Origin: Pseudidiomarina andamanensis
Lineage (GTDB): Bacteria; Pseudomonadota; Gammaproteobacteria; Enterobacterales; Alteromonadaceae
DNA: 32,000 bases
NCBI RefSeq assembly: GCF_009734345.1
Contig: NZ_CP032551.1
Location: forward strand, 780,001-812,000
Direction of reading: 5' to 3'
A program made the position numbers and the translations under genes. Positions within the stretch are counted from its first letter, which is position 1. Each line of letters begins with the position of its first letter. This document shows, one piece after another, positions 1 to 13,273 of the stretch. The notes beneath the pieces were generated by a model, which was not told the origin of the DNA, ran no database searches, and was given only the letters and a program-made list of their open reading frames with translations.

Positions 1-473
1 CCCCTGATATGCGCTGAGAAATTGCAGGTATCTGAAGCGATGCCCGGATAGGGCATTCGACCATCGTTCTCGAATCCATCAACAGGGTTTCGCAGGTGGG
101 TAGTTCGGGTGTTCGTATGCCGGATAATAAAATCCGATCCATCTGCAAATCCGGGGGTTGAACGAGCATATGCCCCGACCGTTGCCTTAAACAATAACTG
201 GTCTGGACGATAAGAAGCTTCTGCCTTGGCTCTTGGGACGACGCAAACCGTCAAGGTGCTTGCCTCGACCTGCTTGATAATTTCCGGGAAATCTATACCG
301 AGAACCGTATTCAGATCGTTGATCGCGTATCTGATATTTTGTTGGCTCCAATTGTGATGGGGATCATTCTTGAGTTTGTACAGGAAATCCGGATTTCCTG
401 GTTGACCCGCTCCATGAAAGTCGGCATGAAAATAGCCTGGCACATTTCGGTTCAAGAACTGGTTTGCTTCCAT
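1..473 (-). CDS. Hypothetical protein, N-terminal 157 codons only (runs off left edge); possibly phosphoribosyltransferase-like
   Basis: My own translation of the minus strand from ATG 473-471 stays open to position 3 (MEANQFLNRNVPGYFHADFHGAG...TVCVVPRAKAEASYRPDQLLF...FIIRHTNTRTTHLRN...PYPGIASDTCNF). It is absent from the ORF track because no stop lies in the window. It starts 11 nt after the HAD gene stop, so the two are probably co-transcribed. The PRTase idea rests only on remembered resemblance of the VPRAK / RHT..TTHL pattern; the diagnostic PRPP loop would lie off-window. Confidence 0.55.
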   Translation of the reverse strand, partial: MEANQFLNRNVPGYFHADFHGAGQPGNPDFLYKLKNDPHHNWSQQNIRYAINDLNTVLGIDFPEIIKQVEASTLTVCVVPRAKAEASYRPDQLLFKATVGAYARSTPGFADGSDFIIRHTNTRTTHLRNPVDGFENDGRMPYPGIASDTCNFSAHIR

Positions 474-484
474 TATGAATTTGT

Positions 485-1102
485 TCATCTTGTAATCCTG
501 CGTACATCTATTATCTGATCAATTCCAATGCCGCAAGCAATAGCTGACTCAATGGCCTTTTCATCATTCTCAAACACCAACATGGACATGCTTCCTTTCG
601 GAAGTTCAGCCATCAATTGCACGTACTTATCTCTTTGAGATTCAGCGTCTCTATAGATCTTCCGTGTGAACTTCTCGATAAGTCCGTGATGGTTGAGTAA
701 CATTTCCGCTCGACATCTGCGACTATTTGTGGCCAAAACAACTTCTTTCTCTTGGACGCGTGCAACTATTTCAATTAGTCGCGGGATGGCCTTTGTTTCT
801 GAAAGATATTTATGATATGAGCGCTCTTTAAGTAAGGCAATCTCTTCAATTTGTTTGTCAGTGATGCCCGGAATAATTTCTTCAAGTACTTCTCGCGTTA
901 TTCTGGTGCCCGGAGTGAAATCAATTTCTATTTGTGTAGATAGAACGAACATCACAGCATCTTTATACGCCAAAAAGTTGGCGTGATCGGAATCCACCAA
1001 GGTTCCGTCCAAATCAAATACGATAACTTCCGCTCGCTCAGCTTTGGCCAGCCATTCTTCACGTGCTTGATTTCCGTCAACCATGCTCCGCCTCATTCGC
1101 AT
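485..1102 (-). CDS. HAD-superfamily hydrolase (phosphatase-type, subfamily IA-like)
   Basis: 205-aa ORF with HAD motif I VIVFDLDGTLVDSD, motif II LATNS, a later Lys and the acidic motif FENDEKAI. The real start may be ATG 1084 (GAGG 6 nt upstream), because the first ATG (1102-1100) lies inside the attC R' core GTTATGC. Confidence 0.8.
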   Translation of the reverse strand: MRMRRSMVDGNQAREEWLAKAERAEVIVFDLDGTLVDSDHANFLAYKDAVMFVLSTQIEIDFTPGTRITREVLEEIIPGITDKQIEEIALLKERSYHKYLSETKAIPRLIEIVARVQEKEVVLATNSRRCRAEMLLNHHGLIEKFTRKIYRDAESQRDKYVQLMAELPKGSMSMLVFENDEKAIESAIACGIGIDQIIDVRRITR

Positions 1103-1200
1103 AACGCCGTTGTAACCGGCAAAAAATTGTTGGCTAAAATGTGAAGCGAAGCGTAACAGCCAACAAGTTTTTTGTCCGCGTTGACAACTTTGTTAGGCTC
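1099..1200 (-). mobile_element. Integron attC recombination site (102 nt)
   Basis: The minus strand reads GAGCCTAAC-AAA-GTTGTCAAC-GCGGAC-AAAAAAC-TTGTTGGCT-(22 nt loop)-AGCCAACAA-TTTTTT-GCCG-GTTACAAC-GGC-GTTATGC. R'' is GCCTAAC (RYYYAAC). R' is GTTATGC (one off GTTRRRY). The L box has one extra base in L'', a spacer is unpaired, and a long stem carries a second bulge. The site begins at the stop codon of the upstream gene. Confidence 0.8.
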
Positions 1201-2179
1201 TACATTTCGTATAAGCTCAAACCCATTGAAGCACCTATAGCGTACCAAACTCTCTGCCAGAGAACACGCTCAAGGTCATAACCAATGAATGATGTTTCCT
1301 CATTACCATGCCTAAGTAATTTCCCATTGGACAAGTATTTGAAATTAAAGGTTCCCAGTTGCTTATCACTTAGCTGTTCAGGAAGGACAGCACGAAGAGG
1401 TTTAAGATAAACAGGATCATCAGCAACTAAAATAAACTCATCAAATAAGTGCGAAAAACTTTCCATATGGTTACCTAACTCGAGTGTATACCATTCTTCA
1501 GAAACGGTATTTATCCTAATTTCACCTTTTTCATAATCCTTCGTTGAACCGTCAAGATGCTTTATCTCATGCCCATCTTCTGGTGGGTGGAAGACAAACG
1601 CAGTGATAAATGATTTTTCATGAAGCCACTCTATGGCATGAGGGATAAATTCATCAATTTCAACAGGCTTTAATAATCGATTTGGATGAAGCTCTTTAAA
1701 GAAACGTAAGGCCTTAGCTGTTTCTCTATAAAGAAAAGGATAGTCGATGTACATTACACGGTACTTAGCTGGTGCTCTTTGCATTCGTTCTTTGTATATT
1801 TCTCTAACTTCAGCAACGCATGATTTAGGGTTTCGGTTTATCTCTCGCCCTGTGAACCTTATAACGGCGTATCCAGCTCTTGAAAGGTAACGCTGCCGTA
1901 TGGCGTCTTTTTCTAACTGCTCTTTCGTTGAATGATAGTCATGCCCATCTAACTCAACTATTAGTCGAGCATCTTTCAATATAAAATCAACACGGAATCG
2001 CCCATGTTTCTCTTGGTCTCCGAACCAATGTTCACTTTCAATTGCACTTGCTAAGTCATCCAGCTCTTTACTAAATTCCTTCTCAATATATGACTGCCCT
2101 CTGTCTCTATACCAACTTGGAGGAGACTTAGGTTGACCTGGATACTTCATTGCTACCTCTATTTATGAGTTGAGCCTAA
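1105..2179 (-). mobile_element. Integron-type gene cassette carrying the DUF559-nuclease fusion gene
   Basis: The cassette 5' end GTTAGGCTC (2180->2172, minus strand) is the exact complement of GAGCCTAAC at the start of its own attC (1200->1192). This is expected for G|TT crossover insertion of a circular cassette. It holds a single ORF with a 29-nt leader and is AT-rich relative to core genes. Confidence 0.7.
1200..2150 (-). CDS. DUF559 / Vsr-like (PD-(D/E)XK type) endonuclease domain fused to an unassigned ~190-aa C-terminal domain
   Basis: 316-aa ORF. The N-terminal ~115 aa carry the DUF559 pattern RFRVDFIL..ARLIVELDGHDYH....EKDAIRQRYLSRAGYAVIRFTGREI. I recognise no family for residues ~125-316. 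Confidence 0.75.
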   Translation of the reverse strand: MKYPGQPKSPPSWYRDRGQSYIEKEFSKELDDLASAIESEHWFGDQEKHGRFRVDFILKDARLIVELDGHDYHSTKEQLEKDAIRQRYLSRAGYAVIRFTGREINRNPKSCVAEVREIYKERMQRAPAKYRVMYIDYPFLYRETAKALRFFKELHPNRLLKPVEIDEFIPHAIEWLHEKSFITAFVFHPPEDGHEIKHLDGSTKDYEKGEIRINTVSEEWYTLELGNHMESFSHLFDEFILVADDPVYLKPLRAVLPEQLSDKQLGTFNFKYLSNGKLLRHGNEETSFIGYDLERVLWQRVWYAIGASMGLSLYEM

Positions 2180-2622
2180 CATTTGTATATCGTGCGTGCG
2201 CATTTAGAAACTCGTTTAACTAACCGTTTTCGTTTCTTAACTTACTGATCCAGCAGGTATGTCTGACTTGAAAGGTTGCGAGTTGGCAAAGGCAATTTGA
2301 GCATGCTCAGTTACACTCTACCAATCGCACAATATCCAACTTTTATTTTTTGTTATGTAATTGACAGTAAACGACTTAAATAAACAACACAACAGCAATA
2401 CGCGCAATATTGCCGAAGTGAATGTGCCGTACATCGCTGGCGACACCATCACTTACTAATAACGCGACGGCTAGTCACTAGTTGCAGTAACCTGAAAGTC
2501 AAAAGGTCCGCTGTTCGCTCATTGCAGACCATTTATCAATCGTTTTAGCGATATTGTCCACATTGCCCTTGGCGCCGAATACTGACGCTCAACAAGGACG
2601 CACTCTACAAAATGAATGTGGC

Positions 2623-2850
2623 TTAATACACAATACCATTACTGCCATTTTGACACTTTTGGCACTTACGATGAAAAACATCGGTGCCATTTGCCCCATA
2701 AATATGGCCACATCCATCCTCCAAACATTCAAGCTTGTAAGCAATAGCATTGTGATCTGTGCCTTGAACTCCCCGAGTACCATGATTCTTTTGATTATTT
2801 CGGTTTATATAACCAATCTGCGTGCTTGTTGCTGTTCCGTTCTTCCACAT
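2623..2850 (-). CDS. Small four-cysteine zinc-ribbon protein (75 aa), function unknown
   Basis: A strong SD AAGGAG (2863->2858) lies 7 nt before ATG 2850. The Cys pairs CLEDGC and CQKC are typical of a zinc ribbon. Plus-strand ORF 2554-2943 is its low-complexity shadow. Confidence 0.6.
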   Translation of the reverse strand: MWKNGTATSTQIGYINRNNQKNHGTRGVQGTDHNAIAYKLECLEDGCGHIYGANGTDVFHRKCQKCQNGSNGIVY

Positions 2851-2875
2851 TGTTCGGCTCCTTATAAGATCATAA

Positions 2876-2892
2876 GCTCGAAACTTTCGAGC
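2876..2892. promoter_or_regulatory. Perfect palindrome GCTCGAAA-C-TTTCGAGC upstream of the zinc-ribbon gene (operator or hairpin)
   Basis: 8-bp arms seen directly. Its right half is part of an 11-bp direct repeat TTTCGAGCATT (2885-2895 and 2981-2991). Confidence 0.3.
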
Positions 2893-3044
2893 ATTAAACG
2901 CAAGCTTGATTCTAAGTCCATAACATCTAAAGAAACCAGATGAACATTATCTATTAGTAGTTTGCGTGTTGACGATACGTTTTCGAGCATTGCTTCTTCT
3001 AGGGCAGCTATTAATTGGCAAAAAGTCCCTATGCCTAGACGATC

Positions 3045-3467
3045 TTAGGTCCGCTCCTCGCTCATGCCGGTCAACGCATACATCACTGTCTCAATTTGTG
3101 CCCCATTCACCATATCGTCACCAAAGCTTGCACATAGCGCTTGGTCAAGTGCGGCCTCCATGACCATACCCTGTTGAATATGCTGTAGTACTTTTGCTGC
3201 AATTTCCTCATACTCATCTTGGCAATTGTTTTCTTTGCAGTACGTGTTCATCGGGTCAGTCTCAAATAGCGCGGCATTAATGGTCTCAACGCACATGCGC
3301 TGTAATTGACGCGATGGACGCGATCCGGTGTAGCCACGTTTATCAAGCTCGGCATGTAATGCATCAAATCGTGATTGACGGCTCTGCATTGCCGCAGAGT
3401 CTGCACACGGCAGTGTATGCAAGCGCATGAGTTGATGAATAATTTGGCAAATGGACGATGCGGTCAT
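3045..3467 (-). CDS. Hypothetical protein (140 aa)
   Basis: Long ORF with core-like composition, divergent from the cupin gene. No family recognised. Start uncertain (Met1, Met14 or Met27). Confidence 0.5.
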   Translation of the reverse strand: MTASSICQIIHQLMRLHTLPCADSAAMQSRQSRFDALHAELDKRGYTGSRPSRQLQRMCVETINAALFETDPMNTYCKENNCQDEYEEIAAKVLQHIQQGMVMEAALDQALCASFGDDMVNGAQIETVMYALTGMSEERT

Positions 3468-3612
3468 TACTTCTCTTTTTATTAATTATTTTTTAATATT
3501 TTTACAACATCAGAACTATACAGGATGTCAGCGACAGAACGTGTCGTGTATCTTCAAATTCGAGTTATTATTTCATTCCAAAGCAATTTCACAGTTCAAC
3601 AGGTACGAAAAC

Positions 3613-4068
3613 ATGCTATTGAAGAAGTCAGATATCGACGCGATGCCAGGTGAGCATAAAATCCACTTTCTCAATCCGAATGCACAACGACTGAATAAAT
3701 CGCTTGGCGATGCTGCAGGAATGAAGTCGCTCGGTATTCATTTAATTACGATACAACCTGGGCACGACTCCACTGAGCATCACTTTCATCATTTCGAAGA
3801 AGAAGCGATTTACGTGCTGTCAGGAGAAGGAATTGTGACCATTGGCCAACAACAGCATGCGATTGGCGCCGGCGACTTTATTGGTTGCCCGATTGATCAT
3901 GTACCGCATTCAATGCATGCAACAGGCTCTGAACCGCTACAGTGCTTAGTGGTTGGCAACAGGCTACAAGCTGATGTTAGCGACTATCCGAATGCCGGGA
4001 AGCGCCTCTATCGCTATCTGAGTGCGTGGGATTTGGTTGATATTAGCGACGCGACGAACGTCAAATAA
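3613..4068 (+). CDS. Cupin-domain protein
   Basis: Cupin motifs GHDSTEHHFHHFEEEAIYVLSGEG...IGAGDF...PHSM. I chose the internal ATG 3613 (MLLKKSDID) because the 54-codon upstream extension is AT-rich, low-complexity and overlaps the divergent gene. Confidence 0.75.
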   Translation: MLLKKSDIDAMPGEHKIHFLNPNAQRLNKSLGDAAGMKSLGIHLITIQPGHDSTEHHFHHFEEEAIYVLSGEGIVTIGQQQHAIGAGDFIGCPIDHVPHSMHATGSEPLQCLVVGNRLQADVSDYPNAGKRLYRYLSAWDLVDISDATNVK

Positions 4069-4100
4069 GAGGGGTGCAGTCCAAGGACTGCCCCCCTCTT
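4069..4100. repeat. GC-rich palindromic repeat, copy 1 (likely bidirectional terminator)
   Basis: GAGGGGTGCAGTCC-AA-GGACTGCCCCCCTC with an A-rich left flank and T-rich right flank. It lies exactly between the convergent cupin and usp stops. Confidence 0.7.
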
Positions 4101-4958
4101 TTACCTAAGTACGAGGGTTGAGGTGCGGCTCTCTTTCAGCATGGCCATGGTGGTACTACCTACCAAGAATTGGCGAATGCGCGAGTGGCCGAATGCGCCC
4201 ATGACCATGAGGTCAATGTCATGTTCGGTTTGATACTGGTGCAAGGTGGCTTCCACGTCGCCGGCACGCAGCGCGACGTGCACTTCGTGACCGCCTTCAA
4301 TCAGAACCTTTTCCGCCCACTTGAGTTTTTCCCAGTTGTTCGCGGTGTCAGCATCAACCATCACCACATGCATCGGCATGCCGTTAAACAATGGGCTTTG
4401 CGCGAGCATTTCAACACCCTTCTCAGTGGTTTTACTGCCATCGAAAGCGAGCATGGCCGAGCGCGGCTCGTTGAACGTGTCTGGTGTTAATAATAGCGGG
4501 CGATGAACCGTGCGAATCACGGTTTCCAACTGGCTTCCTACTTGATGCAGCTGATTCGCCGATGCTTCGCCATGCAGACCTAACACTGCAAGACGCACAT
4601 CACCTTCTAGTGCTAATAAATTTTCGGCAAGCTCGCCGTGGCGCTGACGCTGTGTCACGTCGCTCACACCAAGCTTCTTCAATTTCTCATCAGCGAGTTG
4701 CAACAACACATGACCGTGCTCCAACGCTACCTTGGCGCGCTGGGCATCCAATTCAGCAAGTTGCTCAAGCAAATGTTCACGCGTACCCAAACCAATATTA
4801 CCGGAAAGCTCGGTTTCCGCCTGCGATTTCAGCTCATCTAAAACATGTAATAACATCACTGGCGCAGCCAATTGCTTCGCCGCCCATGCGGAATATTCGC
4901 ACACGGCTGTGTTGCGCGAAGCGCCATCAATACAGCTAACTACGTAAGACATAATCAT
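4101..4958 (-). CDS. Universal stress protein, tandem USP domains
   Basis: 285 aa forming two USP-like halves (...LLHVLD...; ...MVMGAFGHSRIRQFLVGSTT..., the ATP-binding G-2x-G-9x-G(S/T)-like motif). Adjacent to a SulP transporter. Confidence 0.75.
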   Translation of the reverse strand: MIMSYVVSCIDGASRNTAVCEYSAWAAKQLAAPVMLLHVLDELKSQAETELSGNIGLGTREHLLEQLAELDAQRAKVALEHGHVLLQLADEKLKKLGVSDVTQRQRHGELAENLLALEGDVRLAVLGLHGEASANQLHQVGSQLETVIRTVHRPLLLTPDTFNEPRSAMLAFDGSKTTEKGVEMLAQSPLFNGMPMHVVMVDADTANNWEKLKWAEKVLIEGGHEVHVALRAGDVEATLHQYQTEHDIDLMVMGAFGHSRIRQFLVGSTTMAMLKESRTSTLVLR

Positions 4959-4969
4959 CCCTTATTATT

Positions 4970-6469
4970 CTAATGGCCGCCCATAATGCTGTCGGCAGCG
5001 TCGGGTTTATCGTGAACACCAAAACGGTCGACGATGGTCGCGCTGGCTTCGTTGAGCCCCTGCACCTCGACTTCAGCGCCCTCGCGACGGAATTTGAGCA
5101 CAACTTTATCAAGCGCTCCTACCGCAGTGATGTCCCAAAAATGTGCTTTCGTGAGGTCAATAATGACCTTATCCAGCGCTTCTTTAAAGTCGAACGAGTC
5201 AATAAACTTATCAGCAGAAGAGAAAAATACCTGACCGATCACCTGATAACGGCGTTCGCTGCCTGATTCATCAATCGTTGATGTCACACTCATAAAGTGG
5301 CCAATTTTGTTCGCGAAGAACATGGCAGCAAGTAATACACCCACGCCAACGCCAATCGCTAAGTTGTGAGTTGCCACAACAACCACGACGGTGGTGACCA
5401 TTACAATGTTGGTCGATAGCGGGTGTTTCTTAAGGTTACGAATGGAATCCCAACTAAAGGTACCAATGGAGACCATGATCATCACAGCAACCAGCGCTGC
5501 CATAGGTATTTGCTTGAGCCATTCGTCCAGCACAAGAATCAAGACCATCAGGAAAATACCAGCCGTTAACGTCGACAAGCGGGTGCGACCGCCTGATTTC
5601 ACGTTAATCACCGACTGACCAATCATCGCACAGCCAGCCATACCGCCCATCAAACCAGCACCGATGTTGGCGATACCCTGTCCTTTACACTCACGGTTTT
5701 TGTCACTTGGTGTATCGGTTAAGTCATCAACGATGGTCGCTGTCATCAGTGATTCGAGCAAACCAACCACAGCCAAACCAGCAGAGTACGGGAAGATAAT
5801 GGCTAAGGTTTCAAGGTTCAGCGGCACGTCAGGCCATAGGAAAATTGGCAAGGTATCCGGTAGCTGGCCCATATCACCAACGGTACGAATGTCGATATTC
5901 CAGAAAATCGCCACAATCGTTAGCGAAATAATGCACACCAACGGCGACGGCAACATCTTGCCGATGACAGGCACGTACGGGAATAGGTAAATAATGCCCA
6001 GCCCTGCCGCAGTCATAGCGTACACATGCCAAGTGACGTTCGTAAGCTCAGGTAGTTGCGCCATAAAAATCAAAATAGCGAGCGCATTAACGAAGCCTGT
6101 TACCACCGAGCGCGACACAAACCGCATCAACGAGCCCAATTTTAAGTACCCTGCCCCAATTTGCAGCACACCGGTTAATAATGTGGCTGCCAATAAATAC
6201 TCAAGGCCATGGTCGCGCACTAAGGTGACCATCAACAACGCCATTGCACCGGTTGCGGCTGAAATCATGCCAGGACGACCACCAGTAAACGCAATGATCA
6301 CGGCAATACAGAACGAAGCATAAAGCCCTATTTTCGGATCAACGCCGGCGATAATCGAGAAGGCTATCGCCTCAGGAATAAGAGCAAGGGCTACGACAAT
6401 ACCCGCGAGCAGATCGCCACGGATATTCGAAAACCACTGGTTCTGAATGGTTTTGAACATGTGATTCAA
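4970..6469 (-). CDS. SulP-family anion transporter with C-terminal STAS domain
   Basis: 499 aa, polytopic, with an N-terminus typical of SulP ([25 protein letters not shown]). The C-terminal soluble part is STAS-like ([15 protein letters not shown]...). Start at 6469 or 6460. Confidence 0.85.
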
Positions 6470-6510
6470 CTTTTAATTGCGTAATAAAGGCGCGCATTAT
6501 ACATATTCGT

Positions 6511-6934: not shown

Positions 6935-6961
6935 AGGAGCTCTTTTGAGCTCCTTTTTTTA
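6935..6961 (+). terminator. Rho-independent terminator of the csp gene
   Basis: GGAGCTC-TTTT-GAGCTCC followed by a T8 run. Confidence 0.8.
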
Positions 6962-7025
6962 TGCCTTGAATTTGCTTCTGTTCAATCTCATATTTGAGTT
7001 AATACCGCTTTAAATAGAGGTTTTT

Positions 7026-7457
7026 ATGTCTGACAATATCATCGTGGCATGCCCCAGTTGCCACAAGAAGAATCGTGTCGCTACCGATAAACCGCGGAGT
7101 GAAGCGAAATGTGGTACGTGTAAAGCGCCTCTTTTTACTGGAAAAGCGTTTGCTGTTAACGCCGATGAATTTCGCTTGCATCGCGACAGCGATTTACCCT
7201 TGGTGGTGGATTTTTGGGCGAGTTGGTGCGGGCCATGTAAGCAATTTGCGCCGATATTCGAACAGGTTGCGCAGCAATATGCTGAGAAAGCTCGCTTCGT
7301 GAAGGTTAGTACCGAAACTGAGCCTCATTTGGCTCAGCACTTTATGATTCGGAGTATTCCGACATTAATGGTGGTTAAAAACGGACAAGAAGTTGCGCGC
7401 CAAGCCGGGGCGATGGGCCCGGCGCAATTGGTGCAGTGGCTGAATCAACACCTTTAA
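7026..7457 (+). CDS. trxC: Thioredoxin 2 (zinc-finger thioredoxin)
   Basis: N-terminal CPSC...CGTC zinc-binding extension plus the WCGPC active site. Collinear with my recollection of E. coli TrxC (FWA.WCGPC..FAPIFE.VA..., IRSIPT). Confidence 0.9.
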   Translation: MSDNIIVACPSCHKKNRVATDKPRSEAKCGTCKAPLFTGKAFAVNADEFRLHRDSDLPLVVDFWASWCGPCKQFAPIFEQVAQQYAEKARFVKVSTETEPHLAQHFMIRSIPTLMVVKNGQEVARQAGAMGPAQLVQWLNQHL

Positions 7458-7460
7458 AAG

Positions 7461-7498
7461 CGTTAGTCGTTAATCGTTATTCGTCCTTGGTTATTCAT
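7461..7498. repeat. CGTTANT heptad-repeat element, single arm
   Basis: CGTTAGT CGTTAAT CGTTATT CGTCCTT GGTTATTC, closely similar to the left arm of the element at 18979-19052. It overlaps the stop codon of the DCC gene. Confidence 0.6.
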
Positions 7499-7940
7499 CA
7501 AGAGAACACTGTAAGCAGCGTTCCTTACCGGTGATTAACTTCGAAATGCCATTACGATTGCGGGCAAAGAACAAATAGCCTTTGTCCGCAAACCATTTCA
7601 CAATAGGCCAGCGCAGCATTGCCGTCATCCAGCCGCGCCCAACGGCGGACCACGCTGCATGGGTCACATCTAAGCCATAAATCATGTCACCATTTGCCTT
7701 TTGACCATGCAAGATGCGGTTGGCTTCGGCCACATCAATATGCGGATAGCGCTCAGCAAAATCAACTTCCCAAATATTCTCAAACTTAAGTTGCTGCCGT
7801 TTATCCTTCGCTTTTAAATGCTTCATCTCTTTCACGCACAGCGGACATCCGCCATCGTAAAAAAGAATAAGTTGTGTCGCCACGAGCACCTCTTTGCGTC
7901 GTTGATTTATTATCAAAGTATACGTTATTTCCGTCCCCAC
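7491..7940 (-). CDS. Thiol-disulfide oxidoreductase, DCC family (DUF393)
   Basis: LILFYDGGCPLCVKEM matches the DCC-family CxxC signature; 149 aa. Confidence 0.8.
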   Translation of the reverse strand: MGTEITYTLIINQRRKEVLVATQLILFYDGGCPLCVKEMKHLKAKDKRQQLKFENIWEVDFAERYPHIDVAEANRILHGQKANGDMIYGLDVTHAAWSAVGRGWMTAMLRWPIVKWFADKGYLFFARNRNGISKLITGKERCLQCSLDE

Positions 7941-7953
7941 CGATCACTGCAAA

Positions 7954-7985
7954 GGAGGGGTGCAGTCCAAGGACTGCACCCCTCC
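7954..7985. repeat. GC-rich palindromic repeat, copy 2
   Basis: GGAGGGGTGCAGTCC-AA-GGACTGCACCCCTCC, perfect 15-nt arms, downstream of the OmpW-family gene. Confidence 0.75.
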
Positions 7986-8008
7986 TCTTTCGTCACTATT
8001 TTCTAAGC

Positions 8009-8707
8009 TTAGAAGGTGTAGCGCACACCCACCATCGCCACAGTTGGGTCAATTTCAACTGCAACACGTTCAATCGTTGTGCCATTCAAACGAACGTCGG
8101 CATCGGTGTCGATGTCCATTTTCGATACCATCACATGCACGCCCAACTCGTCCGTTAACTTCCAGTTCAGGCCCGCTTGTAGCGCGTAACCGAAGCTGTC
8201 TGACAGTGCCAAGTCGACATGGTCACCAGCAGTTGCAACACCTAGTGCACCAAGAGTAGTAACCAGTTCATTCGAAACCTTATCTTCAAAGAACGTGGTG
8301 TAGTTCAAGCCGAATCCAACGAACGGCTTCACATTGCCTGAACCGATATCAAAGTGATACTGCGCTAACAACGTCGGCGGTAAATGTTTGGTTTCACCAA
8401 TCTTCATGCCAGCTAACACCCCAGTACCATGAATTTCGTGGGTAAATGGTGTTGCTGCGACTAATTCTAACGTCCAATTGTTCGTCATTTTGTAGTCGAT
8501 GGTAATGCCAAGTTGCGTATTATTATCGACCGTTACGCCGGTGCTTCCGTTTTCAAACCCTGCGATAGATTCAACCACTGGAAGGTTCGAGCTACTATCA
8601 CTTGGCATAACGCCAATGGCGCCAACATTAACGCTAAACGTATCAGCGTACGCCGGTGCTGCGCCAATAATGGCGACTAAACTACAAACTAATAATGACT
8701 TTTTCAT
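8009..8707 (-). CDS. ompW: OmpW-family outer membrane protein
   Basis: Signal peptide ending AYA, alternating beta-strand pattern and C-terminal ...VGVRYTF. The length (232 aa) and motifs fit OmpW/AlkL. Confidence 0.75.
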   Translation of the reverse strand: MKKSLLVCSLVAIIGAAPAYADTFSVNVGAIGVMPSDSSSNLPVVESIAGFENGSTGVTVDNNTQLGITIDYKMTNNWTLELVAATPFTHEIHGTGVLAGMKIGETKHLPPTLLAQYHFDIGSGNVKPFVGFGLNYTTFFEDKVSNELVTTLGALGVATAGDHVDLALSDSFGYALQAGLNWKLTDELGVHVMVSKMDIDTDADVRLNGTTIERVAVEIDPTVAMVGVRYTF

Positions 8708-8820
8708 ACAGCTCTCCTTAGTAATTTCCGCACATTTTATAGGGTCACTCCTTGAATAAATTGATCCCGATCAATAAACGTAACCACAAGAAAAACAGGG
8801 GTATTTTAGAGGGCTGGCAA

Positions 8821-8836
8821 TACCACCAAGGTGGTA
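8821..8836. repeat. Small palindrome TACCACC-AA-GGTGGTA next to repeat copy 3
   Basis: Seen directly. It shares the CCAAGG centre of the main repeat family. Confidence 0.4.
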
Positions 8837-8839
8837 CGA

Positions 8840-8871
8840 GGAGGGGTGCAGTCCTAGGACTGCACCCCTCC
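8840..8871. repeat. GC-rich palindromic repeat, copy 3 (centre CCTAGG)
   Basis: GGAGGGGTGCAGTCC-TA-GGACTGCACCCCTCC, lying in a divergent intergenic region. In this copy it cannot simply be a terminator. Confidence 0.75.
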
Positions 8872-8912
8872 TTTCTCTATAATCAATGGAACCAAACAAG
8901 AGGAAATGCGAA

Positions 8913-9164
8913 ATGAAACTGACTGTCGATATCAGCAAATATCCGTTAGCTGAGAATTACAAAGACCCAATTCGCGAGTTTATTGATGAATTGGAAAAAC
9001 ACCCTAACATTCACATCATCACCAATACGCTCAGCACGCAGGTGTTTGGTGATTACGATGACGTGATGGAAGCCATACAGGCTTGTATTAAATGGTCATT
9101 CAATAAATACGGCAAAGTCGTATTCGTATGTAAGTTCCTTCACGGCGATCTTCGCCCAGAATAA
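8913..9164 (+). CDS. YkoF/MTH1187-like small ligand-binding protein (single domain)
   Basis: 83 aa starting MKLTVDISKYPLAENY...VMEAIQACI...VVFVCKFLHG, which resembles the YkoF/DUF77 pattern. ATG 8913 was chosen because GAGGAA lies ~8 nt upstream. Confidence 0.5.
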   Translation: MKLTVDISKYPLAENYKDPIREFIDELEKHPNIHIITNTLSTQVFGDYDDVMEAIQACIKWSFNKYGKVVFVCKFLHGDLRPE

Positions 9165-9195
9165 GAGACGTGCAGTCCAAGGACTGCACCCCACC
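9165..9195. repeat. GC-rich palindromic repeat, copy 4 (left arm degenerate)
   Basis: GAGACGTGCAGTCC-AA-GGACTGCACCCCACC, immediately after the stop codon. Confidence 0.65.
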
Positions 9196-9297
9196 TTTCT
9201 CAATCACAATATCTTACAAATCAGTCTATTGCCTAGACGTCGTATCCCCACATAAACTGCAATCGAAGCTCCCCAAAATGACAACAAGGAAAATCTC

Positions 9298-9921
9298 GTG
9301 AATAAATGGACAAAATGCGCGTTAGCAGTCGCCTTAGCTACCTCATCAACCTTGGCTTTTGCTCAAACAGCAAGTTCGCCGAGTTTTGATTTTATCAGTG
9401 GCGGTTATTTAAGTGCTGATTATGAGGATGAATCAGTCAACGGTTTCACTGCTTCATTCAGCCAATCTTTCGGAAACGATTGGTTCGTTACCGCTGATTA
9501 CATGACAGCATCTGAAGATTATGAAGAAGCATTAATGGATGACATTATTTATCGTGCTAAAGCTGAGATTTCGCGCTTGTACGGAAACGTGGGTTATAAA
9601 TTTTATAACGAGGGTAATACCACAGCTTATGTTTCTGGTGGTCTCGCGTGGGTTGAAGCCGTTATCAAAACCGATACATTCGGAGATTTCGGTGCTGATG
9701 AGACAGGCTGGAACCTAAAGGTTGGTGTTCGTAATCGCTTTACTGATTCGCTCGAGGTCGACGCCAGTATTCGCCACTACGATGTTGGCAACCTTGACAG
9801 TCAGGAAATCAGCGTAGCCGGACGTTACTTCATCAATTCAAATGTCAGCGTTGGTCTTGGTTACAGCATTGTTAGTAGCGAAGAGAATCATACTTTCTTA
9901 ACTGCTTCATATCATTGGTAA
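9298..9921 (+). CDS. Outer-membrane beta-barrel protein (OMP_b-brl type)
   Basis: GTG start and signal peptide MNKWTKCALAVALATSSTLAFAQ. It has amphipathic strand periodicity and an aromatic C-terminus ...TASYHW. Confidence 0.65.
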   Translation: MNKWTKCALAVALATSSTLAFAQTASSPSFDFISGGYLSADYEDESVNGFTASFSQSFGNDWFVTADYMTASEDYEEALMDDIIYRAKAEISRLYGNVGYKFYNEGNTTAYVSGGLAWVEAVIKTDTFGDFGADETGWNLKVGVRNRFTDSLEVDASIRHYDVGNLDSQEISVAGRYFINSNVSVGLGYSIVSSEENHTFLTASYHW

Positions 9922-9925
9922 AAAT

Positions 9926-9956
9926 AAGGGTGCAGTCCAAGGACTGCACCCCACCT
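9926..9956. repeat. GC-rich palindromic repeat, copy 5
   Basis: AAGGGTGCAGTCC-AA-GGACTGCACCCCACC, directly downstream of the OMP gene. Confidence 0.65.
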
Positions 9957-10005
9957 CTGCCGCATGTTAAACTGGGTGCATTGACTCAACAACAAGGTTG
10001 AAAAC

Positions 10006-11448
10006 ATGCCTTTTAGTCCACTTCCTTTTAACCCAGAACACAGCTACCAAGATTTATCTGACCAGTTATTCGCACCATGCGAAGCAACGCCAGTGCGCGC
10101 GCCGCAGTGGATAGCGTTTAACGAAGACTTGGCAGAACAGTTGCAGATTCCACAAGAACTATGGGCAACGGACGAAGGTTTGCAGGTATTTTCGGGTAAC
10201 CAAACACCTGAATGGGCAACACCGGCAGCTCTTGCTTACGCTGGGCATCAATTTGCCAATTTTGTACCACAGCTTGGCGATGGTCGAGCACTGTTACTCA
10301 CAGAAGTACTCGACAAGCACAATCAGCGCTTCGACATTCAGCTCAAAGGTTCAGGCCGCACGCCATATTCACGCGGCGGTGACGGTCGCTCGCCTATTGG
10401 CCCAGTACTCCGTGAATACCTAGTCAGCGAAGCCATGCACAAACTCAATGTGCCGACCACACGGGCATTAGCTGCGGTGGCAACCGGTGAATGGGTGCAA
10501 CGCGAAACCGCGCAGCCCGGCGCCATTCTCACGCGCGTTGCTAAAAGTCATCTAAGAGTTGGCACCGCGCAGTATGTGTTGCATCTACGAGATTACAACC
10601 TGCTCAAGCGCTTCGCCGATTACGTCATTGACCGTCATTATCCTGAACTCAACAATAGCGAAGCGCCCTACCTTGCCTTACTGGAGAGCGTTCAGCTCCG
10701 ACAAGCACAGCTCATCGCCAAATGGATGAGCCTTGGTTTCATTCATGGCGTGATGAACACCGACAATATGACCCTTAGCGGCGAAACCATTGATTATGGC
10801 CCATGTGCGTTCATGGAAGCCTATGAACCCGCCACCAAATTCAGTTTTATTGACAAGCGCGGACGCTACGCCTATCAAAACCAACCTGCGATTGGCTTGT
10901 GGAATATCGCTCGATTTGCCGAAACATTACTGCCGCTCATAGATGACGATCCTGACAAAGCGGTCGCGCAAGCTACCACGACCATTGAAACTTTCCAAGC
11001 GACCTACGAAGACTTTTATTGGAAAGAAATGAGTCGCAAGATCGGCGTTAGCGACATCAATACCGCAAAACCACTTATCGAACGCTATTTAAACCTCATG
11101 CAAGCGCAGCAAATCGACTTCACTCAAGCGTTCCGCTTTTTAGGTGACCAAACGCCAGAGCGCGCGCAACGCCTATTCGAAAATAGCGATTCATGGCAAC
11201 TTTGGTTCAACGACTGGCAAGAGGCGACTGATAACAGTCAACTTCATCAAGTGAACCCAGCATATATTCCGCGTAATCACTTAATCGAACAAGCCATTCA
11301 AACGGCTACGAATCACGGCGATTTAACTATTTTTAACCGTTTGCAAACCATGCTTGCTCGCCCTTTTATCGAACGCGACGAATTCAATGATTGGTTTGAA
11401 CCGGCGAAATCTGAGGAGCGAATTACGCAAACCTTCTGTGGTACTTGA
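10006..11448 (+). CDS. selO: Protein adenylyltransferase (AMPylase) SelO/YdiU
   Basis: 480 aa with SelO pseudokinase-fold hallmarks: GDGRALLL, QLKGSGRTPYSRGGDGR, REYLVSEAMH.L.VPTTRALA, HGVMNTDNM...ETIDYGP. Confidence 0.9.
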   Translation: MPFSPLPFNPEHSYQDLSDQLFAPCEATPVRAPQWIAFNEDLAEQLQIPQELWATDEGLQVFSGNQTPEWATPAALAYAGHQFANFVPQLGDGRALLLTEVLDKHNQRFDIQLKGSGRTPYSRGGDGRSPIGPVLREYLVSEAMHKLNVPTTRALAAVATGEWVQRETAQPGAILTRVAKSHLRVGTAQYVLHLRDYNLLKRFADYVIDRHYPELNNSEAPYLALLESVQLRQAQLIAKWMSLGFIHGVMNTDNMTLSGETIDYGPCAFMEAYEPATKFSFIDKRGRYAYQNQPAIGLWNIARFAETLLPLIDDDPDKAVAQATTTIETFQATYEDFYWKEMSRKIGVSDINTAKPLIERYLNLMQAQQIDFTQAFRFLGDQTPERAQRLFENSDSWQLWFNDWQEATDNSQLHQVNPAYIPRNHLIEQAIQTATNHGDLTIFNRLQTMLARPFIERDEFNDWFEPAKSEERITQTFCGT

Positions 11449-11552
11449 CGTAAAGCCTAAAATACAAATTGTTACGCTCAATATTGGCAAATTTGTGACG
11501 AATTCAATATGCTAACCAAAGGAATAAAAACTACGATTAAGGACGTTAAACC

Positions 11553-11921
11553 ATGTCAGATTTTAACCACGAAACATCATCAATTAATAATATTGCCGCG
11601 CAACAATTAGCGGCCAACAAACAATACACGCAAATTATTTACATATTACAGTTGGTGTCATTGATATTCGGTATTACGTCTATTATTGGCGTAGTGATGA
11701 ACTACGTGAAGTTAAGTGAAGTACGCGGCACATTTCTGGAATCACACTTCCGCTGGCAAATCCGTACGTTTTGGTTCGTTTTACTGTGGACGGTTATAGG
11801 CGGAATTCTAACGATGGTGGGAATTGGAGTATTGATACTTCTGGCAGTTGCCGTTTGGTACATCTATCGCGCGGTTAAAGGCTTAAATGCTTTGAGTACA
11901 AATCGACCGATGTATATATAA
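11553..11921 (+). CDS. Small integral membrane protein (DUF4870-like)
   Basis: 122 aa with 3 predicted TM helices. The motif SHFRWQIRTFWF is as I remember for the DUF4870 family. Confidence 0.6.
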   Translation: MSDFNHETSSINNIAAQQLAANKQYTQIIYILQLVSLIFGITSIIGVVMNYVKLSEVRGTFLESHFRWQIRTFWFVLLWTVIGGILTMVGIGVLILLAVAVWYIYRAVKGLNALSTNRPMYI

Positions 11922-11928
11922 CTCGGAG

Positions 11929-11959
11929 AAAACGAAGTGCAGATCAATCCTGCACTTCG
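11929..11959 (-). terminator. Rho-independent terminator of ychJ (hairpin overlaps its last codons)
   Basis: The 10-bp stem CGAAGTGCAG / CTGCACTTCG (loop ATCAATC) is followed on the minus strand by TTTTCTCC. Confidence 0.6.
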
Positions 11960-12327
11960 CCCTCTAAGTAATACCAGCGCCCGTCTTCACGCACAAAATG
12001 TGACTGCTCTTCCATCACGCCAATGTCGTCGTCGATTTGAAAATAAGCTTTGAAGTGCACGTAGCCCCGATTGCCGTGGGTACCGGTGGCAATCAGCTGT
12101 AGCTGCAACCATTGCGGGTTGTCATCTAACGAGAAATTCTTAGGTAAGGTGCTTGGATGCCAGCTTGTGGCAACATAATCAGCTAACCCTCGTGCATAGG
12201 CACTATAACGCGAACGCATCAGCTCTTCAGGTGTGCGCGGCAGCGCTTTCCTCAAATGAAAAGGCTCGCAACATTTGGCGTATTTCCCGCCACCGCACGG
12301 GCATTTTTTACCGAGTGGTTTATTCAT
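11944..12327 (-). CDS. ychJ: YchJ-family protein (UPF0225, SEC-C motif)
   Basis: From ATG 12327: [23 protein letters not shown]...[10 protein letters not shown]..., matching the YchJ N-terminal SEC-C-like motif and core. This start overlaps the rluF stop (ATGAATAA), which suggests coupling. The upstream 49 codons of the track ORF are antisense to nothing meaningful and overlap rluF. Confidence 0.8.
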
Positions 12328-13273
12328 ATGGCCACCCCTTCTTGCGCGTACGATTTTCTTTCGATGGTTTTTGCTCTGAACGCTTAGGACCGTTCCTCTT
12401 CGCTCGATCAGCCGATTCAGAACGAGTTCCAGCACCAGAGCGTTGTCTGCGATCCTCACGGCGCTGGCCACCACTCGCGCCCGGTGGCCGTTGTGGTTTG
12501 GGTCGACGACTCTTATGCCCTTCAGGCGCTAAGCCACTAGAATGTTCAATTGAAGCCATGAGTTCGCCGAGTTCGCGCTCGGTTAAATTACGCCATTGCC
12601 CAACCTGCAAAGCACCAAGGCGAATATTCATGATGCGTGTGCGTTCAAGCTTGCGAACTTCATAGCCAAAGTGCTCACACATGCGGCGAATCTGACGGTT
12701 CATGCCTTCAATGAGCGTTAAACGAAAAACAAATGTCGATAACTGCTCTACTTTGCAACGTTTCGTCATGGTGCCAAGAATCGGTACGCCATTCGCCATA
12801 CCGCGAATAAAATCAGGTGTAATTGGACGGTGAACGGTGACCACGTATTCTTTTTCGTGTTTATTACCAGCACGTAAGATCTTATTAACCAAATCACCAT
12901 TGCTGGTTAGAAAAATCAGACCTTGTGAATCTTTATCTAAGCGACCAATCGGGAAAATTCGTTCTTTGTGGCCAACAAACTTCTGAATGTTGTTTCGCTC
13001 AGCTGAGTCTGTTGTACTCACCACACCAACTGGTTTGTTAAGCGCAATAAATACAAACTTTTCTTTATTCTGTGCCGCCACTAAGCGTCCATTGACGCGA
13101 ACTTCATCGCCTGCACCAACTTTATCGCCAACCACCGCTTTGCGGCCATTCAGAGTAACCTGTCCTTGTTCAATGAATCGATCCGCTTCACGACGCGAAC
13201 ACATGCCGCTTTCGCTTATGAATTTGTTTAGGCGAACGGCTTCACGCTGTTTAGTGGATTGGTTTGGCTGCAT
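12320..13273 (-). CDS. rluF: 23S rRNA pseudouridine synthase F
   Basis: An S4 domain ([27 protein letters not shown]) plus the catalytic [12 protein letters not shown]. It is collinear with E. coli RluF as I recall it, including the basic C-terminal tail. Confidence 0.9.

Follow-up and report, generated by a model that had tools for sequence, protein, structure and literature searches.

Why should a single gene, carried as an integron cassette and encoding a nuclease joined to a domain without any known family, abut a predicted defense operon? This question is raised by a locus of Pseudidiomarina andamanensis (NCBI RefSeq assembly GCF_009734345.1, contig NZ_CP032551.1), which we analyzed in a stretch of 32,000 nucleotides covering positions 780,001 to 812,000 of the forward strand (hereafter the window, whose first letter is position 1). 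The gene is an open reading frame (ORF) of 316 amino acids (aa) at 1200..2150, with its ATG at 2150 and its stop codon at 1202..1200; like the cassette features, the predicted defense operon, and the two small ORFs given below, it lies on the minus strand. Its product combines an N-terminal DUF559/Vsr-like nuclease domain with an unassigned C-terminal domain, and it is the sole gene of a complete cassette that has moved between genomic contexts and whose homologs recurrently neighbor defense systems. We give about even chances to the proposal that it functions as a single-protein endonuclease directed against phages or other mobile genetic elements (MGEs).

A Vsr-like nuclease fused to a domain without known family

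The ORF can be taken as a real gene because a search of 5.8 billion proteins recovered 246 relatives of near-fixed length (exactly 316 aa in 99 of the best 120) and 60-99% identity. Their named sources include Pseudoalteromonas, Shewanella, Vibrio, Citrobacter, Oligella, Pseudomonas, Xanthomonas, Sphingomonas, Trinickia, and Methylobacter, to which a scan of one genome per species (39 loci, 33 with a full-length copy) added Marinobacter, Nitrosomonas, Variovorax, Oscillatoria, Leptolyngbya, Crocosphaera, and Balneola; the family thus spans Proteobacteria, Cyanobacteria, and Balneola. The same ORF recurs with 100% identity at two further loci, L041 (GCA_054779515.1) and L042, and contig BAAGYC010000001.1 of the former matches the window without a difference across 7 kb. 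A blastn search of 5,426 complete E. coli genomes returned no homolog, no full-length member was found in 50,697 phage records, and 2.9 million viral contigs contained two matches, both prophage-like. The gene is accordingly accessory and patchy, not core, and phage genomes almost never carry a member of the family. A conserved 19-residue N-terminal tail (PPSWYRDRG) precedes the nuclease domain proper.

The nuclease domain occupies residues ~20-125 (1776..2093), its Pfam match covering residues 43-117 (1800..2024). DUF559 (PF04480) was detected there with E=8.6e-14 (51.8 bits against a cutoff of 20.6) and the overlapping MTES_1575 (PF18741) with 47.6 bits against 38.2. The nearest PDB sequence to the family profile is 3HRL, a 104-aa 'endonuclease-like protein' (E=4e-7), and the nearest fold to the nuclease part of the AlphaFold model is the Vsr-like catalytic domain of the homing endonuclease I-Bth0305I (3r3p; Foldseek probability 1.00). 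In Vsr itself the active site comprises E25, D51, H64, H69, and D97, and the I-Bth0305I family has a further acidic active-site residue (PMC3239194); mapped onto these by motif order and the published description, the putative catalytic residues of the 316-aa protein are E23, D55, E66, D68, H70/H73, and D82. E23, D55, E66, D68, H73, and D82 are conserved in 148-150 of 150 aligned sequences, and the range widens to 142-150 when H70 is included. Since these Vsr-type residues are near-invariant, we take the domain to be a catalytically competent nuclease, and their retention together with an intact ORF argues for selection on the predicted activity. The assignment made in the initial annotation, which had recognized a DUF559/Vsr-like nuclease from the letters of the sequence, is thereby borne out.

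The same annotation had described DUF559 proteins as normally stand-alone and ~120 aa long. This holds for typical members of the DUF559/Vsr-like family (PF04480, PF18741, 3HRL, PRK09767), which are stand-alone proteins of ~105-120 aa and with which the N-terminal ~105 residues share, above the Pfam cutoffs, the composite acidic/histidine site; it does not hold generally, as the DUF559/MTES_1575 module also occurs C-terminally in large helicase-type defense proteins. Hhe, ProA, and PDC-S37 indeed give weak local matches to residues ~63-127 (E=5e-4 to 0.05), pointing to a common nuclease module, but these are ATPase/helicase proteins of 1,500-1,900 aa, whereas the 316-aa protein has no NTPase domain. 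Unlike either arrangement, it places the nuclease N-terminal to a 190-aa unassigned domain and adds the 19-residue tail. PADLOC-DB v2.0.0 contains no model covering the full protein, and its weak local matches (PDC-S37, Hhe, DpdF) all fall on the nuclease module.

The C-terminal domain (residues 127-316; 1203..1772) had been left unassigned in the initial annotation, and it stayed so under all searches: neither the single sequence nor the individual members nor a profile matched anything in Pfam, NCBIfam, PADLOC, or the PDB sequences, and a diverse profile of the domain likewise found nothing in the PDB. Searched against the 5.8 billion proteins, the profile returned only the same family, and a hidden Markov model of the domain run against 1.84 billion cluster representatives hit only 37 clusters. 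Modeled alone with AlphaFold2, the domain gave a confident α/β fold (pLDDT 93.4, pTM 0.89) with alternating β-strands and α-helices and two β-hairpin insertions; Foldseek comparison of this model with the PDB and BFVD yielded nothing better than E=5e-3 and TM-scores below 0.4, the non-significant matches being spread over Rossmann-like, HAD, glycosyltransferase, and FEN/PIN-like folds. Full-text searches pairing DUF559 or MTES_1575 with integrons or defense recovered no study of the family; it goes unmentioned in the papers on integron-borne defense that we checked and, by text search, is not among the described bacteriophage resistance integron cassettes (BRiCs). By these databases and full-text searches, the domain and its fusion to DUF559 have not been described before, while the cassette as a vehicle, be it a defense cassette or a lone one, and the Vsr-like nuclease effector are already known kinds.

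Distant relatives of the C-terminal domain (17-34% identity) fall into three groups: those with DUF559 again in front, stand-alone versions of ~170-200 aa, and two proteins with a different N-terminal head, one of which weakly matches the PD-(D/E)xK model PDDEXK_5 (E=0.011). The fusion is old, since DUF559 is retained at the N-terminus even where the C-terminal domain has diverged to 20-34% identity. D136 and D245 are invariant across all distant relatives, and within the family nine residues, D136, D244, D245, K277, R280, N283, T286, W298, and Q299, are kept in 147-150 of 150 sequences, from which it follows that the domain has a strongly constrained site of its own. Judged by these motifs, it is a module with a predicted D/DD/N-x-T/K/R pocket that is seen either by itself or joined to DUF559 or to another PD-(D/E)xK-like head. 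We suggest, with somewhat less than even confidence, that it represents an undescribed enzymatic or ligand-sensing module which, together with the Vsr-like nuclease, forms a one-protein immune system carried by integrons across at least three bacterial phyla.

It is unlikely that the C-terminal domain is instead a very divergent PIN/NYN-like (Zc3h12a/LabA-type) metal-dependent RNase, which would make this a two-nuclease protein attacking both DNA and RNA, with no sensor, and would alter the mechanism but not necessarily the biological role. The order of motifs does resemble that of Regnase-1 ('IDxxF' in β1 with 'IDGSN', 'ADDxxY' with 'YDDRF', and 'N(D/E)xT' with 'SNDT'), the aspartates D136, D244, and D245 are invariant, two distant members weakly match the Pfam NYN model at the ADD motif (E=0.035 and 0.17), and PIN-like folds (2qip, T5 exonuclease, and chain SL of the SSU processome) occur among the low-ranking Foldseek matches. 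Against this, none of 26 close members matches NYN, no Foldseek match is significant, TM-scores staying below 0.4, and the structures of Regnase-1 and KHNYN, although present in the PDB, fall outside the top 50 structural matches. Moreover, hhalign of the family profile with Regnase-1 alone (the probe sequence having been checked against 3V32) and with a 24-sequence Zc3h12a profile gave probabilities of 0.2%, 0.6%, and 1.5%, which leaves a PIN/NYN identity unsupported: it is a lead, not an assignment.

Returning to the domain as a module that selects or senses something for the nuclease, two known enzyme groups offer instructive parallels. I-Bth0305I likewise joins a Vsr-type active site to a separate specificity domain (PMC3239194), but it has N-terminal NUMOD repeats and resides in a phage group I intron, neither of which applies to the 316-aa protein, and it spreads by homing as opposed to attC recombination. 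The type IV enzymes PvuRts1I and AbaSI, in which a C-terminal domain that reads modified bases directs an N-terminal Vsr-like cleavage domain (PMC4081097), resemble the 316-aa protein in layout, in size (~300 aa), and in operating without a methyltransferase; they are the best precedent for the way in which a lone nuclease of this type can tell foreign DNA apart. Their C-terminal domain, however, is an SRA-like β-barrel, in contrast to the three-layer α/β arrangement modeled here, and neither PDB sequence searches nor Foldseek linked the 316-aa protein to their structures; the likeness would therefore concern mechanism only.

Cassette boundaries and mobility

The gene lies alone in a cassette of 1075 bp (1105..2179), situated between the region of a 75-aa ORF and an operon resembling the Shosta defense system. 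Its 5' boundary is the core site GTTAGGC (2174..2180), with the crossover at G2180|T2179, 30 nt upstream of the ATG, and a 23-nt spacer containing a GAGG ribosome-binding site separates core and start codon. At the other end, a 100-nt attC site (1099..1198) consists of the R'' core GCCTAAC (1198..1192), which begins one nucleotide past the stop codon, an imperfect palindrome, and the R' core GTTATGC (1105..1099). The cores fit the RYYYAAC/GTTRRRY consensus except for a single deviation of R' from GTTRRRY. The bottom strand of the site is predicted to form a long hairpin, bulged at three single bases on its 3' arm (-23.9 kcal/mol), and none of 200 shuffled sequences folded as well (-12.6±2.5 kcal/mol; z=-4.6). 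Our scanner for attC sites, which combines a regular expression with folding, found only 1198..1099 in the window at strict settings; it missed known Vibrio arrays and, when relaxed, produced many false positives in coding regions, so that its negatives carry little weight.

These boundaries are corroborated by comparison. In Pseudoalteromonas amylolytica JW1 (L002) the entire cassette, including an identical attC, recurs with 97.7% identity over what corresponds to 1102..2194, both flanks being unrelated, and the identity with this copy and with that of Pseudoalteromonas haloplanktis (L001) starts at the core site GTTAGGC. Cassette copies in Oscillatoria, Marinobacter, Vibrio algivorus, Neptunicella, Spongiibacter, Leptolyngbya, and Balneola carry different attC sites; in these, a GTTRRRY core precedes the ATG by 20-32 nt (mostly 29-32) and R'' follows straight after the stop codon. 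Among the 33 full-length copies of the species-representative set, 10 have cassette cores on both sides, six have the upstream core only, and 17 have neither. Movement of the cassette between contexts is thus shown, and the description of the gene as the only one of a complete cassette stands.

The initial annotation had pointed to chromosomal integron cassettes as known reservoirs of antiphage and toxin functions, but the window copy does not lie in a chromosomal integron. There is no tyrosine recombinase or integrase among the larger ORFs of the window and no cassette array in it, the flanks being the Shosta-like operon and housekeeping genes; hence we regard the copy as a solitary cassette of the SALIN type (single attC site lacking an integron integrase). 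Loot and colleagues showed for this class that the integrase inserts cassettes into the genome at attG sites, which carry a GWT motif (10.1101/2022.09.11.507474). Joined at the crossover, the flanks of the present cassette read ...AAATG|TTATGC..., with a GTT that fits the GWT of attG sites, and the predicted empty site is ...GATATACAAATG|TTATGCGAATGAGG...; judging from these flanks, the cassette was probably inserted in an integrase-mediated, attG-type event at a non-canonical GTT. Neither the empty site nor the upstream flank was recovered (no matches in two metagenome scans). The likeness to BRiCs (10.1101/2024.07.02.601719) and SALIN cassettes (10.1101/2022.09.11.507474) accordingly extends to compactness, to a single gene accompanied by a functional-looking attC, to occurrence both in chromosomal integrons and alone, and to the inferred GTT insertion triplet, with the reservation that the latter is deduced from the joined flanks.

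Two of the copies merit separate mention. In P. haloplanktis (GCA_031158615.1, 9970-10958) a 99% identical copy stands between the core genes cvfB and pyrF; the shared DNA runs from T+GTTAGGC through GCCTAA| inside R'', with no attC after it. Leptolyngbya PCC 6406 (L029) has the identical GCCTAA|TCGGG junction, and the breakpoint in both corresponds to the AA|C cleavage position of the core site. A group II intron or other RNA as the cause of the truncated attC in P. haloplanktis was discarded, since an Rfam scan of the junction was empty; a scan of the window flanks also found nothing. In P. amylolytica JW1 (6953-12948) the cassette stands straight after ffh, with no integrase within 6 kb upstream, and is followed by small same-strand ORFs coding for a Tdi1-like immunity protein, P-loop kinases, a DUF4019 protein, and GNATs, which gives the region the look of a CALIN-type array (cluster of attC sites lacking an integron integrase). 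We rejected a reading of the family as type VI secretion system effectors with cognate immunity, which the Tdi1-like gene might invite, given that this gene has a boundary of its own, which makes it a distinct cassette, and that neither the window nor the other loci contain it.

Genomic neighborhoods and the proposed function

The neighborhoods of homologs, whose survey had been proposed at the outset, comprise both other cassettes and defense systems. In Vibrio parahaemolyticus an identical protein occupies four different positions of the superintegron array in four strains, and in three of these the 8 kb of flanking sequence retrieved include the IntI gene. In Aliivibrio wodanis the homolog is carried by a 92-kb plasmid, where small cassette-like genes surround it. 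The remaining contexts are without attC. In Pseudomonas syringae the homolog directly follows HamA and a DEAD helicase (a Hachiman-like pair), with RES and AAA_21 genes nearby; in P. aeruginosa and two other Pseudomonas species it adjoins a type VIII retron (RT_VIII, E=5e-121; DUF626_VIII, E=5e-114), with AbiEi/AbiEii 5 kb away; and in P. typographi it adjoins a HerA-type defense ATPase (E=5e-168). The recurrence of the same retron neighbor in three Pseudomonas species (L027, L031, L044-L047) suggests a shared mobile defense island. In Citrobacter freundii and a viral contig the gene is flanked, in a 186-like prophage, by the integrase on one side and PD-Lambda-1/CI on the other, and in a P2-like viral contig it comes right after the terminase and portal genes (gpP, gpQ). 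The latter position is the cos-proximal hotspot, which is known to hold anti-phage systems (PMC9122126), and integron cassettes are documented carriers of defense genes (10.1101/2024.07.02.601719); the window copy, for its part, abuts the Shosta-like operon. Defense neighbors therefore recur across unrelated taxa, though not universally.

Taken together, an intact predicted nuclease gene that is patchy, mobile, lodged in integrons and prophage hotspots, found beside defense systems, and rare in lytic phages bears the signature of a host-side defense gene, which lends weight to the proposed anti-phage or anti-MGE endonuclease. The initial annotation had offered a defense or toxin module: the former half draws support from the superintegron, defense-adjacent, and P2-hotspot homologs, whereas nothing suggests a secreted or toxin-antitoxin-type toxin. 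Under this proposal the gene would travel as a promoterless integron cassette, and its N-terminal domain would be the effector, the acidic residues and histidines of the composite 'EDxHD' site binding Mg2+ so that the enzyme nicks or cuts DNA. A lone nuclease without a methyltransferase must spare its host, and we therefore propose a selecting or sensing role for the C-terminal domain, whose acidic/polar pocket (D136, D244-D245, N283, T286, K277, R280) may recognize a feature of foreign DNA, such as modified bases or a replication or packaging intermediate; alternatively, the domain may sense a signal of infection and unlock the nuclease. For any specific trigger the likelihood is much lower than for the general role.

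Several points weigh against a defense role. At 10 further non-cassette loci whose immediate neighbors were taken without selection, PADLOC identified a defense gene at only one (the HerA of P. typographi mentioned above), the others being next to genes for a phage-type integrase, a multicopper oxidase, DnaE2, a DUF6119 protein, an EEP-family protein, and proteins without assignment. Moreover, defense islands also hold toxins, anti-defense genes, and other cargo. No homology supports any particular role for the C-terminal domain, and between a terminator-like hairpin (2415..2393) and the ATG there is no sigma-70-like promoter, so that the window copy may be silent. The support for defense is, finally, indirect and drawn from sequence comparison, and we found no paper on the family.

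Some of these points would equally fit a non-defense accessory role, for instance as a Vsr-like repair or nicking enzyme, or a passenger cassette that is never expressed, either of which we consider improbable. Vsr functions in repair, the DUF559 proteins are uncharacterized, many cassettes in arrays are unexpressed, as the promoterless window copy could be, and several of the homologous neighborhoods are unrelated to defense. No cytosine methyltransferase partner, however, was present at the loci examined; the patchy distribution, with the gene missing from all the E. coli genomes searched, is that of an accessory gene, an intact ORF with near-invariant catalytic residues across 150 sequences speaks for selection on activity, and defense neighbors recur in unrelated taxa. 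Least probable is a selfish nuclease gene of no benefit to the host, either a homing endonuclease standing free or an element of the addiction type. In its favor, the nuclease domain finds its best structural match in a homing endonuclease, the very high conservation across phyla implies frequent horizontal transfer, and the DNA shared with the P. haloplanktis copy between cvfB and pyrF ends exactly inside the R'' core, but flanks that differ at nearly every locus leave no conserved homing target, attC and IntI account for the mobility, the Pfam scan shows no NUMOD or other homing-type DNA-binding domain, the gene is not within an intron or intein (the Rfam scans being empty), and the family is essentially missing from phage genomes, where homing genes thrive.

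Should the anti-phage function prove true, the family would be a very compact (~1 kb, one gene) and unusually widespread addition to the catalog of defense systems, and it would provide a function for a domain family described in no database. Its loci would then capture every stage in the life of a defense cassette, from superintegron arrays through a plasmid and prophage hotspots to attC-less copies in defense islands and a lone copy beside a defense operon. As a Vsr-type nuclease equipped with a new domain for specificity or control, the protein might also serve as a reagent, as PvuRts1I and AbaSI do for modified cytosines.

A probable acquired island around the cassette

Downstream of the cassette and co-oriented with it lie a HAD hydrolase gene (485..1084) and a gene for a ShosT-like phosphoribosyltransferase (PRTase), which runs from 488 to 1 and past the window start (PADLOC, E=2.8e-7); the ShosA/DprA-like gene (E=7.8e-49) is just beyond the window start, the whole operon corresponding to L041:6001-8211. 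The HAD gene overlaps the ShosT-like one without an intervening attC, and by their domain matches the three genes form a Shosta-like defense operon with an extra HAD gene. The longest HAD ORF would start at ATG 1102, within the R' core of the attC (1099..1105), and the true start is likely the ATG at 1084 given in the record, which follows a GAGG. Only ~20 nt thus separate the end of the cassette from the HAD start codon, and the cassette may interfere with transcription of the HAD gene or provide for it.

The GC content is 38-43% over ~250-3500 as against 49-54% in the adjoining SulP and Usp genes (4000..6500), as expected for acquired DNA. This low-GC stretch, which takes in two small orphan ORFs besides the cassette and the Shosta-like operon, probably constitutes a single acquired island, into which an integron integrase would have inserted the cassette just upstream of the operon and in the same orientation. 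The rest of the window is of a housekeeping nature, with genes for the methylcitrate cycle, SulP, Usp, thioredoxin, OmpW, SelO, transporters, and c-di-GMP enzymes.

The first of the orphan ORFs codes for 75 aa (2623..2850), has a good ribosome-binding site, and contains paired cysteines (…CLEDGCGH…HRKCQKCQ…) that possibly form a zinc ribbon; the second, of 140 aa (3045..3467), adjoins it. Both lack a family match, and both are annotated as genes in the NCBI record. Exact-sequence look-ups returned no record for these two neighbors, for the 205-aa call of the HAD ORF, or for the proteins P0163 and P0170. A further observation concerns a metagenome contig (L055:700-5500) that encodes a stand-alone homolog of the C-terminal domain (P0153): it bears small co-directional ORFs separated by the repeated palindrome TTATAGACAAYATTGTCTATAAG, and may be an array of cassette-like units from an AT-rich organism, with a recombination site of an unusual kind.

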